DNA of 64,000 nucleotides, from assembly GCA_041641305.1 (NCBI GenBank), contig JBEPYN010000001.1, positions 192,001 to 256,000 on the forward strand. Direction: 5' to 3'. Origin of the DNA: Nitrososphaerota archaeon. GTDB taxonomy: Archaea; Thermoproteota; Nitrososphaeria_A; Caldarchaeales; Caldarchaeaceae. A program made the position numbers and the translations under genes. Within the stretch, counting starts at the first letter, position 1. Every line of letters begins with the position of its first letter. This document shows positions 29,902 to 35,808 of this stretch, in pieces. The notes under the pieces were generated by a model that had not been told where the DNA came from, did no database searches, and worked only from the letters and a program-made list of their open reading frames with translations.

Positions 29902-30372
29902 TTGAGCAAGGAGAAAGTCGTCAAGGTAAAAATCCGGCACGGGGAGAACGAGGTTGAGTTTACTGGAGATAAGGAAGAGGTGTGGACGCTGGTTAACCGA
30001 TATTTTTCCGAGCGTCTAGGCCCGGTTGAGGCTGTTGCAAAGCTCAGTGGACAAGTTGATTTGAACAATTTGCTCGACAAGCTTGCCGGAAAAGTAGTTG
30101 TAAACAACAGCGGCATAGACGTCGTCGCCAACGTCGACACAAAGAAAAAGATTGTTTACTGTCTTGCGGGAGCATATGTGGGCCATCGGCTGGGGATTCT
30201 GGACTCGGATGGTCTCAACCCTAAACGGGTGGCGCAGATACTGCACATCGATGAGAAAGTGGCCCGCGCTCGTCTCAGCGACCTCTGGAAAGAAGGTGTT
30301 GTTGACCGCGACGAAGAAGGGCGTTACTTTTTTAAGCCTTCAATAGGGTTGAGAATCTTTGAAGGTGAGTGA
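29902..30372 (+). CDS. Winged-helix protein, paralog A
   Basis: N-terminal KVKIRHGENEVEFTGDKEEV; C-terminal wHTH (VAQILHIDEKVARARLSDLWKEGVV..GRY). Confidence 0.8.
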   Translation: MSKEKVVKVKIRHGENEVEFTGDKEEVWTLVNRYFSERLGPVEAVAKLSGQVDLNNLLDKLAGKVVVNNSGIDVVANVDTKKKIVYCLAGAYVGHRLGILDSDGLNPKRVAQILHIDEKVARARLSDLWKEGVVDRDEEGRYFFKPSIGLRIFEGE

Positions 30373-30375
30373 CGG

Positions 30376-30852
30376 TTGTTGAAGGTTTCTATCAATTACG
30401 GTGATTTGCGTGCCGAATTCGAAGGTGATCCGGCGGAAGTTTACCAAAGCGTTGTAAGGTTTTTGGAGAAAAACATTCCAGCCTATTCGCTGGCCTCGAG
30501 GCTCCGCAGCTCCACCGGCCTTGAGGAGATTCTTGATAAAATTAAGGACTGGGTGAGCTATGACTCCTCGCACGGAATTTATCTAAGGACTGATTTGTCC
30601 AAGCTTCCTACCGCTGAAGCGCTTCTACTCTTTGCTTCAACACGTTACCTCAACAAATTGCTTGGTCACTCTGAAAGCTGGGAATTTCTCGCTTCAGAGG
30701 CTGCTTCAGCTCTCGGCAAACCTGAGAAAACGGTTTCGGGCCGCCTTTCAGAGCTCGTGCAGAAAAGTTTGTTGAAACGGGTTGGACGCGGCGGCTACAC
30801 CATCACACCCTACGGACTCGACTATATTGTGGAGTTCTCATCAAAACGCTGA
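30376..30852 (+). CDS. Winged-helix protein, paralog B
   Basis: KVSINYGDLRAEFEGDPAEV; wHTH (AASALGKPEKTVSGRLSELVQKSLL..GGYTITPYG). Confidence 0.8.
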   Translation: MLKVSINYGDLRAEFEGDPAEVYQSVVRFLEKNIPAYSLASRLRSSTGLEEILDKIKDWVSYDSSHGIYLRTDLSKLPTAEALLLFASTRYLNKLLGHSESWEFLASEAASALGKPEKTVSGRLSELVQKSLLKRVGRGGYTITPYGLDYIVEFSSKR

Positions 30853-31232
30853 GCTACAGATGTTTTTTTCGACAAGTAAATATAGCGTCGAGGTTCACCA
30901 ACTCTCTCCAGCTTTCCTTCTCTTACGAGGTCGAGCAACACATGTGCCACAGCTGTTGTGTCGTATAGGAAGCCGCGTCTCTCGAGCTCGGAGACAACTT
31001 CCGCGAGTGTCCTGCCTGTTTGAAGCCATCCATCGGCTAACAATTCTTCCACAGCTCTCTTGCATGTGATGGGCTTACGTGTTTGTGTCTGTGGTTGCGG
31101 GGTAGTGGCCGGCTCGGTTGAGCGGATGGCGGCGATTGTGTTTTTGACTGCTTCTTCTATTTTGTCGACTGGAGCCTCTATCTCGACTGTTATGTTGCCG
31201 ATGTTGATTTTGATTTTGGCTGTTGTTGTCAC
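30822..31232 (-). CDS. Winged-helix protein, paralog C
   Basis: KIKINIGNITVEIEAPVDKI, Pro/Thr/Gln linker, wHTH (TLAEVVSEL..VAHVLLDLVREGKLERVG..Y). Confidence 0.8.
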   Translation of the reverse strand: MTTTAKIKINIGNITVEIEAPVDKIEEAVKNTIAAIRSTEPATTPQPQTQTRKPITCKRAVEELLADGWLQTGRTLAEVVSELERRGFLYDTTAVAHVLLDLVREGKLERVGEPRRYIYLSKKTSVAQRFDENSTI

Positions 31233-31247
31233 CTGTTTTCCTGTTGT

Positions 31248-31328
31248 TGTTCATGTTGCGCAATATTTAAATACTTCAACAACTCCAATTTTGCATGGAA
31301 TTGTTGAACATCATGAGCAACCTGAACA
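31248..31328. promoter_or_regulatory. Divergent promoter with palindromic TATA and nested inverted repeats
   Basis: TATTTAAATA (31264-31273); IR TTCAACAACTCCA/TGGAATTGTTGAA (31275-31287, 31296-31308); IR TGTTCATGTTGC/GCAACCTGAACA (31248-31259, 31317-31328). Confidence 0.6.
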
Positions 31329-32320
31329 TTCAACAACATAACCTCCACACCCTCCTCAAAACATTCACCCAAACAACCCAAACGAGCCTAAACACGTTGA
31401 AAAACAGTGCCGTCGCCATAGACACGGAGTCATCGGACAACCAAGACGACGCTCCTCTGCTAGACCTAGACGGATGTGACGCGCTGCCTCTTGAGCCGTC
31501 GGGGTCAAGGGTCCCTGTTGTCGCCTGCGACATGTCCACCGTGAAGATCGCTGACTCGGTTGAGGGGGGACTCTGGGCTGTCCGCGGAAGTATTGTGAGG
31601 AAAAATGTTTCTGGGTTGGAGGTGGTGATGGTCGGCCCTTTTGTCTACACCGTGTCTCCACGTAACGTGGAGATGATACTCTCATCGCTTTTAGATGTCT
31701 TGGGCGTGGACGGTAAACCTCCATCATACAATCAGACCACCGCCCCCAAACTTGTAGGAAACCTTTTCGAAAAAGTTCTCCAGCTACATGCTTCACAGAT
31801 TATGGAAGGTGGAATTCTTCTGCTCGACGGTGCGCTTACAGCAGGTCCCGCCGACAGCCCGGTTGAGGTTGTCGCCCGCATAGTTGAGTCCTCGCATCGC
31901 CACGGCCTCGGTGTAGCTGCTTTCTCAAAGTCAACCACTTTGACTCTTCAGGGTCGCAACATTCTCTCGGTCGAAGGCTCCATGACACCGCCCTATGTAG
32001 TCAGGCTACCGCCACGCAGGACAGGACGTTGGCCAGTTTACTGCGGCTCGATATACGTAGCTCATCTCTCCCCCCGATATTTCCCGTTCAGAGTCGATGT
32101 ATCGGCCGCTGACGACGTACAGCTCTTCAACCACCTTCTCTCGAGTGAAGCAATCATTTACGGCTACCCAGAGTCGCTTATACTGGCGCATCAGCTTGCG
32201 AAGCTCAGCAGGCTTGATATACTCACAATATGTGCTAGGCTCGAAGCCGTTCACAAAATCAGGTTCACGCAATCACCGTCGCTCAGGAGCTCGCTCTTCG
32301 GGCCACTGACCCACTCGTGA
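31295..32320 (+). CDS. NurA-domain nuclease
   Basis: ACDMS, LLLDGAL, SKST, FRVD, GYPESLILAH NurA motifs; start uncertain (31295 or 31313). Confidence 0.82.
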   Translation: MELLNIMSNLNIQQHNLHTLLKTFTQTTQTSLNTLKNSAVAIDTESSDNQDDAPLLDLDGCDALPLEPSGSRVPVVACDMSTVKIADSVEGGLWAVRGSIVRKNVSGLEVVMVGPFVYTVSPRNVEMILSSLLDVLGVDGKPPSYNQTTAPKLVGNLFEKVLQLHASQIMEGGILLLDGALTAGPADSPVEVVARIVESSHRHGLGVAAFSKSTTLTLQGRNILSVEGSMTPPYVVRLPPRRTGRWPVYCGSIYVAHLSPRYFPFRVDVSAADDVQLFNHLLSSEAIIYGYPESLILAHQLAKLSRLDILTICARLEAVHKIRFTQSPSLRSSLFGPLTHS

Positions 32321-32327
32321 CCCGGAG

Positions 32328-33794
32328 ATGAAGATTTTACAGAAACGTGGGGAAACTCTTGAGCTTCTCTGCACCCCATCTGAGCTCGAGTTCGAGATAG
32401 GAGATTACATCAGATTAGGTGAAGGCGACAGCTTTCTGCTGGCTCAGGTTGTCGACGTAGGTTATGTTGATTTGCCTGGGGGAGTGGAGGAGCTTTTGAG
32501 AGAGCTGATCGTCTCTGAGATAGATGGTGTTTCGTCGCTCGACCCATACAACACTTCCTCGCTTTCCATGATGGTTCGTGAAGTAAGATGCGTAACCGCG
32601 AAGGTTCGAGCCGTGTTCCACACCGGATTACTGGCTCAGACTTCTCCATGGCTGCCAAGCCGCTACACGGCCACCCAAGAAAAGGCCGGGCCCCAGCTCC
32701 TCCACCAGCTCATACTCGGAGAAGAAAAGCAATTCCTCTTCTGCCCAGGCACAGTCGGAGGAGAGCCGATCAACCTCCCGTTAACCAGGCTCGACGGCAG
32801 CCTGACAATCATAACAGGGAAGAAAGAGAGCGGAAAATCGCATCTCGCGAAAATAATTGTTGAGGGAATCGTGTCAAATGGAGGAACAGTTCTCGTGCTC
32901 GATGTCAACGGCGAATATCTGTATCTCGATAAAAGGGTTGACGGCGGCAGAAGCAACCTCGCAGACGCTCTAACGGTTCTGCATCCGGGCAGAAACTTCA
33001 CCACCTCGCTGGGTATGATGGGTTTGAAGACCTTCCACGACATCATGGAGCATGTCTACGGGACACCTGCCACAAGCCTTAGAGAACTTGGAAGAATTTG
33101 GAAAAAGCTCGAAAAAACGTGTGGAGATTTCGGTCTCGAGGACCTTATGGATGCCGTGGAAAACGAGCCGATGAACGAGGCGGTGCGTGAAGCTCTCCTC
33201 TCGAGGCTGGAGAGCATAAACTCCTCCGGCTTCATCTCCGACGGCGACCCCACCGACCTCGCAGAACTCCTCAACCCAAGGCCCTCGGGAAATGTCACAG
33301 TTGTTAACCTCTCCAAGCTGCTACCAAGCACCAGAAGACTGGTCGTCGAATATCTACTCAGCCATCTCTCAACACTTCTCTCGTCAAACAAGATTGAGCC
33401 TCTATTCCTTTTGGCTGAAGAAGCACATCTCTATCTTCGGGAAACCTACTGGGAAGACCTGGTAACAAGAATGAGACACATCGGGATGTTCCCCATCTTC
33501 GTGACAAACCAGCCAGACACAATACCCGAGCTGGTCTACAGACAGGCCGACAACATTTTTCTCTTCAACTTCACAAACGACACAGACCTCGAGAAAATAT
33601 CCAAAATATCGAAAATCGACTCCGAGACCGTGAAGCTGCTGGTGAAGAAGATGCCGCCACGACGCTGCCTCGTCCTCGGCAAAATAGTCTCCGACATTCC
33701 TCTAATGCTGAAGGTGCGAACAAGCAATCTCATGACGATGGGTCAAACCAAGCTTTTCTTTAAAAGGCGCTCAGAAGCCACAGTGCGTGGATGA
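32328..33794 (+). CDS. HerA-like (DUF87/COG0433) ATPase
   Basis: HAS-barrel-like N-terminus, Walker A GKKESGKS, LDVNGEY, Walker B LLAEEAH, RMRHIG, TNQP. Confidence 0.88.
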   Translation: MKILQKRGETLELLCTPSELEFEIGDYIRLGEGDSFLLAQVVDVGYVDLPGGVEELLRELIVSEIDGVSSLDPYNTSSLSMMVREVRCVTAKVRAVFHTGLLAQTSPWLPSRYTATQEKAGPQLLHQLILGEEKQFLFCPGTVGGEPINLPLTRLDGSLTIITGKKESGKSHLAKIIVEGIVSNGGTVLVLDVNGEYLYLDKRVDGGRSNLADALTVLHPGRNFTTSLGMMGLKTFHDIMEHVYGTPATSLRELGRIWKKLEKTCGDFGLEDLMDAVENEPMNEAVREALLSRLESINSSGFISDGDPTDLAELLNPRPSGNVTVVNLSKLLPSTRRLVVEYLLSHLSTLLSSNKIEPLFLLAEEAHLYLRETYWEDLVTRMRHIGMFPIFVTNQPDTIPELVYRQADNIFLFNFTNDTDLEKISKISKIDSETVKLLVKKMPPRRCLVLGKIVSDIPLMLKVRTSNLMTMGQTKLFFKRRSEATVRG

Positions 33795-34414
33795 GAACAT
33801 CGACAATATTGTCAAAGCTTCCGGTATATCAAGACGAAATCAATGCTGTAATCCGGCAATTTAGGCGAAATTTTTTCGATGAAGAGAAGATTTTGGCGGA
33901 GCTTGTATATTGCTTATGCACTCCTCAGACCAAGGCGGTAAACGCTTTGAAAGCTGTTGAAAAACTTTTCGAGAGCGGAGACCTGTGGAGTGGTGAAGTG
34001 TCGGAGATAGAATCTGTTCTGAGGAGCTCGGGTGTAAGGTTTCACAGGACAAAGGCTCGGCATATTGTTTCTGCCTTGAATGTGTTTGATGATGTTCTGG
34101 CCGTTGTTAGGAGTGGTAGGTCGCATGTGGAGATTAGGGGTTTTCTGGTTGATGGTGTAGAGGGGTTGGGTATGAAGGAGGCGAGCCATTTTCTCCGCAA
34201 CATAGGGTTCGACGGCCTAGCTATCCTCGACCGACACATACTCAGATACATGGCTGCCAACGGATTAATCGACATGGTGAAGTTGTCTCCTTCAGGGGGC
34301 AGATATCTTGCTTATGAGAAAAAATTTGTAAACCACGCAGAGAGATTCGGCTTGTCGCCTGCCGAGCTTGACCTGTTGATCTGGGCCTCTGCAACAGGAC
34401 GTGTCGTGAAATGA
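33791..34414 (+). CDS. ogg: 8-oxoguanine DNA glycosylase/AP lyase (Ogg2)
   Basis: ELVYCLCTPQ, RFHRTKA, GLGMKEASHFLRNIG, AILDRH, ELDLLIW. Confidence 0.92.
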   Translation: MRTSTILSKLPVYQDEINAVIRQFRRNFFDEEKILAELVYCLCTPQTKAVNALKAVEKLFESGDLWSGEVSEIESVLRSSGVRFHRTKARHIVSALNVFDDVLAVVRSGRSHVEIRGFLVDGVEGLGMKEASHFLRNIGFDGLAILDRHILRYMAANGLIDMVKLSPSGGRYLAYEKKFVNHAERFGLSPAELDLLIWASATGRVVK

Positions 34415-35343
34415 GTGTCCAACTATCACAAGACCTGCGGAGTTTTCTTGAAGCAATCATTTCCGATAGGCTGGACATGCTCCTCGAAGCATACGCCAAG
34501 CCTCTGCCAGATTCCTTCCGTGTTAACACCCTCAAGATAGAGTTGGAAGAGTGTCTGAAACTTCTCCAAGACGAGGGGTTGACTGTCAAAAGAATCCCTT
34601 TCACTTTTGACGGTTTTTATGCGGAGCCTGAGGGGGTGTTGACTGTTTCTCTCTGGCACATGCTGGGCTATGTATATGCACAGGGCCCCGTCTCAATCCT
34701 CGTCACCGAGCTTCTGGATGTTGAGCCCGGTCACATGGTTCTCGACCTCTGCGCAGCCCCCGGCAGCAAAACAACACACATAGCCGCGAAGCTTGGTGGC
34801 AGGGGTGTGGTTGTGGCAAACGATGTGTCGAGGACACGTATCAAGGCTCTCTCATCAAATATGCAGAGGTGCGGTGTTGTGAACGGTGTGTTGACCCTCG
34901 CCGACGGGAGGAGGTTCGGCTACAAGTATAGGGAGATGTTTGACAGAGTTTTGGTTGATGCGCCGTGCACCTCTCTCGGGATAGGCTCCAAGGATTGGAG
35001 TGTTCTAAGAAACTGGACCAGCGGTTCCTCGATGAGGCTGGCCAGGCTTCAGACAAGCCTCTTGTTCTCGGGCTACATGGCGCTTAAGCCCGGTGGAGTT
35101 CTCATATACTCTACCTGCACTCTCCACCCCCTCGAAAACGAGGCCGTCGTGAACAGTTTGCTGGAGAAATTTGAGGAGGCCGAGGTGCTTCCGATTACGC
35201 TACACGGTCTTGGGTATGACCAAGGGTTTAGTGAATGGGGTGGCCGAAGTTTTTCGCCGGAGATGTGTAAAACGGTTAGGATATGGCCATTCCAGAGCGG
35301 CGCCGAAGGCTTCTACATAGCCAAAATAAGAAAGCCGGGGTGA
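34411..35343 (+). CDS. RsmB/NOP2-family RNA m5C methyltransferase
   Basis: DLCAAPGSKT, LVDAPC, YSTCTL.P.ENE, GFYIAKIRK. Confidence 0.93.
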   Translation: MSVQLSQDLRSFLEAIISDRLDMLLEAYAKPLPDSFRVNTLKIELEECLKLLQDEGLTVKRIPFTFDGFYAEPEGVLTVSLWHMLGYVYAQGPVSILVTELLDVEPGHMVLDLCAAPGSKTTHIAAKLGGRGVVVANDVSRTRIKALSSNMQRCGVVNGVLTLADGRRFGYKYREMFDRVLVDAPCTSLGIGSKDWSVLRNWTSGSSMRLARLQTSLLFSGYMALKPGGVLIYSTCTLHPLENEAVVNSLLEKFEEAEVLPITLHGLGYDQGFSEWGGRSFSPEMCKTVRIWPFQSGAEGFYIAKIRKPG

Positions 35344-35352
35344 GCCGCGTAA

Positions 35353-35808
35353 TTGAAAAAAATGGAGAAACACGAGCTTCAGAATTTTGCTGATGAGGTG
35401 TTGAAGAGCTTCGGGGCAAAGCTACTGACAGAGAAGCATGTTTTCGTGAAGACAGGTGAGGGAAAGATAAGGGCGATGACTGAGGAAACATTTCGGGCCG
35501 CCTCATTTTTCAGAGGAGTGATGAACGCAGGTGTCTACGTGGCTAAGCAGAGGAAGAACTTTGTAACCCTCACTATTGAGGGCTGTAAGTTTGTATCGCT
35601 TCTCCCCGGGGCCCATGTGGTCGAGCTCACGAAGGAGGATGCCGTTAAGTGGATGAGAGGTGACCCGGTAAATGTCGGGATACAAAGCCATAAAACAGTG
35701 ATAGGCCGCTATAGAGAACATCTTCTCGGAACAGCCGTGGTTGATATCAACGGCGTTGCATATCCACAGGTGCCAAAGTGGCGGCGGCTACCTCCCGACA
35801 CTAGCTGA
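35353..35808 (+). CDS. NIP7/PUA-like partner of NOL1/NOP2 methylase
   Basis: LTIEG, VELTKEDAVKWMRG, VPKWRR; directly downstream of the m5C MTase. Confidence 0.7.
   Translation: MKKMEKHELQNFADEVLKSFGAKLLTEKHVFVKTGEGKIRAMTEETFRAASFFRGVMNAGVYVAKQRKNFVTLTIEGCKFVSLLPGAHVVELTKEDAVKWMRGDPVNVGIQSHKTVIGRYREHLLGTAVVDINGVAYPQVPKWRRLPPDTS

Follow-up and report, generated by a model that had tools for sequence, protein, structure and literature searches.

A divergent NurA-HerA pair with three winged-helix paralogs and a conserved putative operator in a Caldarchaeales archaeon

The window analysed here, a stretch of 64,000 nucleotides (nt) from a Nitrososphaerota archaeon of the order Caldarchaeales (assembly GCA_041641305.1, contig JBEPYN010000001.1, positions 192,001 to 256,000), was found to carry the genes of a NurA-like nuclease and a HerA-like ATPase beside three small paralogous genes, named A, B and C, each of which ends in a winged helix-turn-helix (wHTH) domain. 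An ancient chromosomal module, spread over Bathyarchaeia and Nitrososphaeria (with Aigarchaeota and Thaumarchaeota counted in), is represented in this hot-spring archaeon in the form that it takes in Caldarchaeum. The nurA-herA pair is distinct from the canonical resection pair, its synteny with the small genes extends through the phylum, and the region between C and nurA holds a conserved putative operator, unique within the genome. We consider it fairly probable from these sequence features that C is a dedicated autoregulatory switch (an autorepressor) of an Mre11/Rad50-independent machine, with A and B as its partner paralogs.

The NurA-HerA pair and its canonical counterpart

In archaea, DNA ends are resected by NurA-HerA, which is usually treated in conjunction with Mre11-Rad50; the canonical gene set in Sulfolobus and Pyrococcus is herA-mre11-rad50-nurA. 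In the window, a divergent NurA-like nuclease of 341 amino acids (aa) is encoded by nurA (31295-32320, + strand, with an alternative ATG start at 31313), and a divergent HerA-like P-loop ATPase of 488 aa with a DUF87 domain by herA (32328-33794, + strand). The Pfam model NurA (PF09376) matched the C-terminal part of the nuclease only and lay just above its threshold (21.8 bits, cut-off 21), and no NurA structure was found when the protein was compared with the PDB sequences by phmmer. The hhalign comparison with canonical-type NurA gave a probability of 97% (E 4e-11 over 238 columns) and lined up the DxS, DGS and GYPxxLxxAH motifs of the two proteins. The D/E/D/H motif residues, already listed as kept in the first-pass annotation of this DNA, were located at D79, E159, D178 and H299 and were invariant or nearly so, and the sequence GYPE at 290-293 was conserved as well. 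On these comparisons, the protein is a true member of the NurA family.

The ATPase was recognised by the DUF87 model (PF01935) with 57.5 bits (cut-off 23.2), which places it in the FtsK-HerA superfamily, and its residues G164, K170, S171, E364, E365 (Walker B), R381 and R383 were invariant among 15-21 orthologs. The sequence GKKESGKS had at first been taken for an atypical Walker A motif; it fits the consensus GxxxxGK[ST] and is unusual at variable positions only, and the description was given up. The closest match among the PDB sequences was S. solfataricus HerA (4d2i, E 8e-8). On the NCBIfam models HerA_Thermprot (NF040937, cut-off 800) and helicase_HerA (NF040819, cut-off 970), the window protein scored 24.8 and 14.5 bits, respectively, and does not reach the equivalog level of a canonical resection HerA. 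Furthermore, a maximum-likelihood tree of 25 HerA paralogs, some long branches of which are unreliable, separated the window-type HerA from the canonical, type-2, type-3 and other forms with a support of 98/91. The NurA-HerA pair is real, but very divergent and distinct from the canonical resection pair.

The genome (1.66 Mb in 4 contigs, 99.3% complete) was found to hold three NurA/HerA pairs, none of them linked to mre11-rad50. Neither mre11 nor rad50 was detected in the window, as the first-pass annotation had stated, or elsewhere in the genome, and no linkage of the pair to a resection operon was seen; the best match to the SbcD/Mre11 model genome-wide reached 16 bits, and a search for the Rad50 zinc hook returned none. 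The sister species Candidatus Caldarchaeum subterraneum (Ca. C. subterraneum; complete genome G009) has four NurA genes and a HerA 93% identical to that of the window. The C proteins of the two genomes are 93% identical as well, which places the present genome in Ca. Caldarchaeum. Besides the window-type module, it carries a textbook nurA-herA-mre11-rad50 operon (L117:1488-7250), the products of which matched HerA_Thermprot with 284 bits, NurA_Sulf with 71 bits, Mre11_Sulfo with 158 bits and Rad50 with 222 bits. With these four genes as tblastn queries, none of the four was found in the present genome, and the Mre11 and Rad50 queries returned nothing or SMC-like P-loops. A separate herA-mre11-rad50-nurA locus, the search for which had been suggested as a check, is present in the sister species and was not found here, where its absence reflects either a true loss or an assembly gap. 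Because the sister species keeps the canonical operon elsewhere in its genome and the window-type HerA forms a clade of its own, the proposal that the window pair is a second, Mre11/Rad50-independent NurA-HerA machine is supported at the level of sequence comparison.

The two other pairs of the genome had features of their own. The second pair (contig C2, 376693-379112) gave the best Pfam NurA match of the genome (80 bits); the motif that usually ends in Ala-His reads Ala-Asp in this NurA, here and in C. subterraneum, so that Asp stands in place of the conserved His. Next to this pair lies a 121-aa gene with a product whose N-terminal sequence is wHTH-like in appearance. In the third pair (contig C1, 741342-744099), herA precedes nurA, the NurA has 435 aa, and the HerA scored best on the model of the DNA-import ATPase CedD (42 bits). 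The sole Rad50-like match in the genome was a short SMC-like ATPase of 584 aa (contig C1, 328135-331208; AAA_23, 71 bits), which is followed by two small genes on the same strand (272 and 203 aa) that could encode partners; no Mre11-like gene adjoins it.

Winged-helix paralogs, synteny and the putative operator

Paralog A (29902-30372, + strand, 156 aa) starts with a strand-strand-helix module, has a small helix-turn-helix-like element in the middle and ends in a winged helix, and paralog B (30376-30852, + strand, 158 aa) has the same architecture. Paralog C (30822-31232, - strand, 136 aa) combines the strand-strand-helix module with a variable linker, a conserved Thr-Cys and a winged helix. 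A and B could be aligned over their full length, as had been noticed at first sight, both by BLASTP (E 6e-13, 26% identity over 145 aa) and by profile-profile comparison (probability 99.7%, E 1e-25), and they are full-length paralogs. The BLASTP similarity of C to A and to B was not significant. When profiles were built from the orthologs, B and C matched with a probability of 92% (E 5e-7), and the N-terminal 33 residues alone matched in exact register, A+B against C with 96.5% (E 1e-9), A against C with 94.8% and B against C with 95.1%. The winged-helix parts reached a profile similarity of only 54%, a weaker signal than that of the N-terminal module. The relationship claimed for the N-terminal parts of the three proteins is thus significant at the profile level, and C has the strand-strand-helix module in common with A and B, visible by profile comparison only.

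The predicted model of A (mean predicted local distance difference test score (pLDDT) 87) contained a hairpin at 7-22, a helix at 24-38, a helix-helix-hairpin element at 42-74 and the C-terminal wHTH domain at 80-154. In the model of C, a hairpin (4-21) and a helix (25-38) were followed by a disordered linker and a wHTH domain at 57-121 made of three helices and a hairpin (pLDDT 84-88), a winged-helix fold; its N-terminal module was of low confidence in the monomer (pLDDT about 57). Residues 75-156 of the A model resembled MarR/IdeR/ArsR-type domains with VIA Z values of 8-9.4 and a root-mean-square deviation of 2.2-2.9 over 67-73 residues, again as expected of a wHTH fold; the comparison effectively covers this part of A, and the N-terminal 74 residues were barely sampled. 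The Foldseek comparison that had been recommended for the small proteins was carried out with the A model against the PDB; it brought up generic wHTH regulators and no match at E <= 0.001. A complex prediction for A+B+C, with C as partner, gave a score of 0.01 and a mark of 0.32 and counts neither for nor against binding.

None of the three proteins reached the cut-off of a Pfam or NCBIfam family. Weak wHTH similarities were found, among them matches of 13-18 bits to the named families HTH_24, AbiEi, Penicillinase_R and PaaX, which lie under the cut-offs of 22-35. The database relatives of C were all named 'hypothetical protein' and none had a Pfam domain; a protein-atlas look-up of B and C agreed with this. 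In an exhaustive profile search, the A/B family comprised 390 clusters at E <= 1e-10 and 1571 members, the best 150 of which were examined for long proteins. Among these 150, the long members had a Ser/Thr kinase, DUF488 or unknown N-terminal parts as fusion partners, or consisted of wHTH repeats, and none was fused to NurA or HerA; a word-indexed search for longer proteins likewise returned no fused wHTH-NurA/HerA form, which is weak evidence. The top match of the A/B family (211 bits; P0056, L198:322-1929) was a protein of 535 aa on a 2-kb metagenome contig, with an N-terminal Ser/Thr protein kinase domain and an A/B-type region.

The distribution of the module was followed with the window-type HerA, one ortholog of which was present in each of 40 relatives (42-93% identity). 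All 58 sampled Caldarchaeales had it as a single copy; of 400 genomes sampled across the phylum, 132 had it, nearly all of them in one copy, and it was not found in any of 56 small complete Nitrosopumilaceae-like genomes or in several Thermoprotei-like families. A pattern scan of species genomes raised the number of carriers to at least 522 in Nitrososphaeria and Bathyarchaeia, with Caldarchaeum, Pelearchaeum, Terraquivivens, Geocrenenecus, Nitrososphaeria, Conexivisphaerales, Bathyarchaeia and Methylarchaceae among the named ones. In the Caldarchaeales loci, the module stands at a constant chromosomal place adjoining polB, rsmB and ogg, and the G+C content of the window module is in line with its surroundings. 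By this distribution, the module is a core gene set passed on vertically, and not an island.

The order of the wHTH genes and the pair, which had been named for checking in relatives, proved to be conserved far beyond the genus. At the level of the order, C was the divergent neighbour of nurA-herA in all 20 loci compared (four families); B adjoined C in almost all of them, A was adjacent in two families, and one genus had an extra operon of a C-like gene, A and B 3 kb off, besides the C next to nurA. Of 16 distant loci in which C was matched strongly, 12 showed the C / nurA-herA arrangement, and in the other four C was divergent from an even more diverged gene pair in the positions of NurA and HerA. 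A set of 80 named species loci included 72 that were informative, that is, had room upstream of nurA. A divergent C was present in 62 of these, and in the remaining 10, from Bathyarchaeia, nurA-herA was immediately preceded by two co-directional B-like genes, so that nurA has a hairpin-wHTH gene as its direct neighbour in 72/72 informative loci. In a Nitrososphaera-like genome, nothing Mre11-like followed the C-linked pair, and a second NurA was located elsewhere in that genome.

C and nurA share a bidirectional promoter with a putative operator, delimited by sequence and conservation at 31233-31330. Their starts are 62 bp apart, with a single TATA-like element (TATTTAAATA, 31264-31273) between them. 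On the C side, the hexamers TGTTCA (31249-31254) and TGCGCA (31258-31263) lie 9 bp apart directly beside the TATA-like element; at the 5'-end of nurA, TGAACA (31304-31309), TGAGCA (31313-31318) and TGAACA (31322-31327) follow one another with a 9-bp period. When the orthologous regions were aligned, a block of two to three TGNNCA hexamers and then GCGCAACATTTATA was found to be kept from Caldarchaeales to Bathyarchaeia, while the flanking sequence had diverged. In 22 loci, 3.9 hexamers per 130 nt were counted, against 0.44 (standard deviation 0.69) in 3020 background windows, and 33 of the 65 hexamer pairs within 27 bp were spaced by exactly 9 bp.

The independent 80-locus set gave the same picture. 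Its 62 loci with C had a mean of 3.8 hexamers per 180 nt (background 0.62), a 9-bp hexamer pair in 53 (1.7% of background windows) and the anchor motif in 58, whereas the ten loci without C had 0.4 hexamers, no 9-bp pair (0/10) and no anchor motif. Within the present genome, three in-phase hexamers occur at nurA and once inside an SMC gene and nowhere else, and two hexamers beside an A/T-rich box occur at this promoter and at one other site; on these scans, the element appears to be unique among the promoters of the genome. The operator scan was negative upstream of the A-B operon, which has its own promoter without the TGNNCA element, and the TGNNCA array was also absent from the operons of the order B-like, B-like, nurA, herA. 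Upstream of the first B-like gene in C-less Bathyarchaeia loci (L170-L175, L178; about 130 nt), GTGAAA-type repeats and a AGTAACACCT box were conserved. A palindromic TATA box was also considered as a conserved feature and was dropped, the perfect palindrome being confined to this genome and Ca. C. subterraneum while relatives have CATTTATA-type boxes.

Roles considered for the module

C is the candidate binder of the element because it is always there and has a wHTH domain, and because the element is present with C and absent without it. C would most likely bind the TGNNCA hexamers, which lie in phase on either side of the single TATA box. With the TATA-like element centred near 31268, the nurA transcript would be expected to start near 31295, and the downstream hexamers would then lie at about +8 to +32 of this transcript. 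For the nurA promoter, the C-side hexamers would overlap the side of the B recognition element (BRE), and for C the stretch from the TATA box to its transcript start; a protein seated on both arrays would block both promoters. C may in this way repress its own gene together with the nurA-herA(-ogg-rsmB-p151) operon, the last three genes of which are described below, as a single-target switch. A and B, as tandem-winged-helix paralogs of C, would probably act together with C, which they may join through the common N-terminal module by the hetero-oligomerisation proposed at first, or on the machine. The machine is most likely a housekeeping enzyme of DNA-end processing or translocation, independent of Mre11/Rad50, with a HerA-like hexameric motor and a NurA-like nuclease.

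Several points weigh against C as such a switch. Three conserved paralogs exceed the need of a simple local repressor, and the paralogs that share an operon with nurA-herA in some Bathyarchaeia fit subunits of the machine as well as regulators. Since their promoter lacks the operator, A and B do not have to be under common control with C, and it has to be listed here too that the searches found no fused wHTH-NurA or wHTH-HerA protein. The compared loci are relatives, so that the counts overstate their independence, and the ten loci without C probably represent one clade. If nurA starts at 31295 and not at 31313, the downstream array is partly coding, and coding constraint may add to its conservation. 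Finally, the regulatory and enzymatic roles are themselves predictions from sequence.

The wHTH proteins could, on the other hand, be DNA-recognition or loading subunits of NurA-HerA that assemble via the N-terminal module and target DNA ends or sites, an explanation we regard as possible though doubtful. Two to four paralogs are retained beside nurA-herA across classes, up to the B-like, B-like, nurA, herA operons, and A and B each have two helix-turn-helix-type elements. The N-terminal module is the best-conserved common part, and its low confidence in the C monomer is as expected of an oligomerisation element. Such subunits are harder to reconcile with the position of C, which is divergent on a conserved, genome-unique putative operator, the classic layout of a local regulator. 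A and B, moreover, lie up to 3 kb away under their own promoter in several lineages, and the lack of NurA or HerA fusions among the best 150 of the 1571 family members tells against physical subunits as well. The two functions could also be united, in that an A+B+C multi-winged-helix complex held together by the N-terminal module would both gate nurA-herA transcription and load the machine on DNA; we think this unlikely. If true, Bathyarchaeia, Aigarchaeota and Thaumarchaeota would share, from their common ancestry, an undescribed pathway of DNA repair or chromosome processing.

A role in defence is established for HerA ATPases that are paired with other effectors, and the first-pass annotation had counted a defence system among its candidates. 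In an antiviral system of the HerA-plus-nuclease type, the wHTH proteins would be sensors or regulators. Weak, generic matches to the PADLOC HerA models and to mad8 (58 bits) and 27.9 bits on NCBIfam HerA_antiphage (cut-off 800) point in this direction. This explanation is nevertheless very improbable: the module is single-copy in every sampled Caldarchaeales genome, keeps its chromosomal place by polB, rsmB and ogg, is co-transcribed with the housekeeping genes ogg and rsmB and matches its surroundings in G+C content, and NurA, A, B and C had no specific defence-family match in PADLOC beyond weak wHTH similarity. A comparison with PHROGs gave nothing specific. Equally hard to credit is a canonical end-resection NurA/HerA split from mre11-rad50 with the wHTH genes as chance neighbours: the size and domain order of the proteins are as in the canonical ones, S. 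solfataricus HerA is the best PDB sequence match and no other pair of this genome is linked to mre11-rad50, but the sister species keeps both the four-gene operon and the window-type module, the equivalog-model scores are very low, HerA forms a separate clade, and the wHTH adjacency in 72/72 informative loci comes with a conserved putative operator.

Neighbouring genes and known systems

The six open reading frames noted in the first-pass annotation were verified at their coordinates against the list of open reading frames. The stop of A and the start of B are separated by 3 nt, and B and C are convergent with 3' ends that overlap by 31 nt (30822-30852), an overlap that recurs in relatives (e.g. 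loci L045 and L046). As had been described, C is transcribed divergently from nurA-herA-ogg, and with them from rsmB, and herA and ogg overlap by ATGA. The gene ogg (33791-34414, + strand) encodes an 8-oxoguanine DNA glycosylase/lyase of the archaeal Ogg type, recognised by Pfam Ogg-HhH (174 bits, cut-off 27) and by NCBIfam PRK01229 (183.8 bits, cut-off 183). It is followed by rsmB (34411-35343, + strand), the gene of an RNA m5C methyltransferase of the RsmB/NOP2/Sun type (Pfam Methyltr_RsmB-F, 167.8 bits), and by p151 (35353-35808, + strand), identified as an open reading frame and by synteny, which closes the co-directional block. The 151-aa product of p151 is a conserved, family-less protein for which neither Pfam nor the PDB sequences gave a match, and the gene is syntenic after rsmB throughout Caldarchaeales.

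The ogg/rsmB junction has an ATGA overlap as well, and nurA and herA are spaced by 7 nt that include GGAG. The two overlaps and this short gap indicate that the genes from nurA to rsmB, and probably also p151, form one transcription unit, in which ogg would be translationally coupled to herA, and rsmB coupled to ogg and co-transcribed with it. The linkage of ogg to nurA-herA noted earlier is not general: ogg and rsmB were found 3' of herA in only 11 of the 80 loci, all of the Caldarchaeales type, and the Ogg/RsmB link is specific to this order.

In the papers found on these lineages, HerA and NurA are listed solely as homologous-recombination genes (PMC5797428, PMC7554672), and a NurA-HerA-Mre11 locus has been described for Nitrososphaera (PMC13707971). 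A full-text search on HerA/NurA in these lineages found no description of the module, its wHTH partners or the operator. What emerges is an ancient NurA-HerA paralog, distinct from the canonical one, together with an undescribed winged-helix family dedicated to it and a conserved putative operator. A second and deeply divergent NurA-HerA pair is thus kept by a whole archaeal branch, with ammonia oxidisers of soils and the abundant Bathyarchaeia among its members. This module points to an unstudied DNA-processing function with testable parts, namely one putative operator, three small proteins and two enzymes, and its relatives in cultivable Nitrososphaera-type organisms make experiments feasible. 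With no pair of this genome linked to mre11-rad50 and the operon of the sister species not found in it, the question is also raised of how double-strand breaks are resected here.

Among the closest known systems is the canonical HerA-NurA of Sulfolobus and Pyrococcus (4d2i), which has the same two folds and the same pairing of adjacent, coupled nurA and herA genes; the Walker A and B motifs, the arginines and the NurA D/E/D/H residues are conserved as in the window pair. The window HerA is not orthologous to the canonical one, however, as seen from its 24.8 bits on HerA_Thermprot, where the operon HerA of the sister species has 284, and from its separate clade. The window type was never linked to mre11-rad50 in the loci examined, always stands with hairpin-wHTH paralogs (72/72), and has its own putative operator in loci with C.

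Divergent autoregulators of the MarR/ArsR type resemble C in the C-terminal wHTH fold, in the back-to-back layout and in the repeated sites over the promoter. Those families do not feature the strand-strand-helix module at the N-terminus or the set of three paralogs, and the sites in the window are short hexamers phased at 9 bp instead of one long palindrome. The anti-phage HerA systems (HerA with Sir2 or DUF4297) likewise join a HerA-family ATPase to an effector nuclease and are not linked to mre11-rad50; the window HerA falls outside their models (NF042943/NF042944, 27.9 bits, cut-off 800), is core and single-copy, and has a NurA homolog as its effector. Finally, A recalls ESCRT-II EAP30/Vps25 by its tandem helix-turn-helix-type elements and a weak match to Pfam EAP30 (PF04157, the EAP30/Vps36 family; 17.7 bits, below the cut-off of 26.8); the corresponding structure 3cuq_B came at rank 25 in Foldseek with a TM of 0.27, and the context of the window is DNA processing, not cell division.

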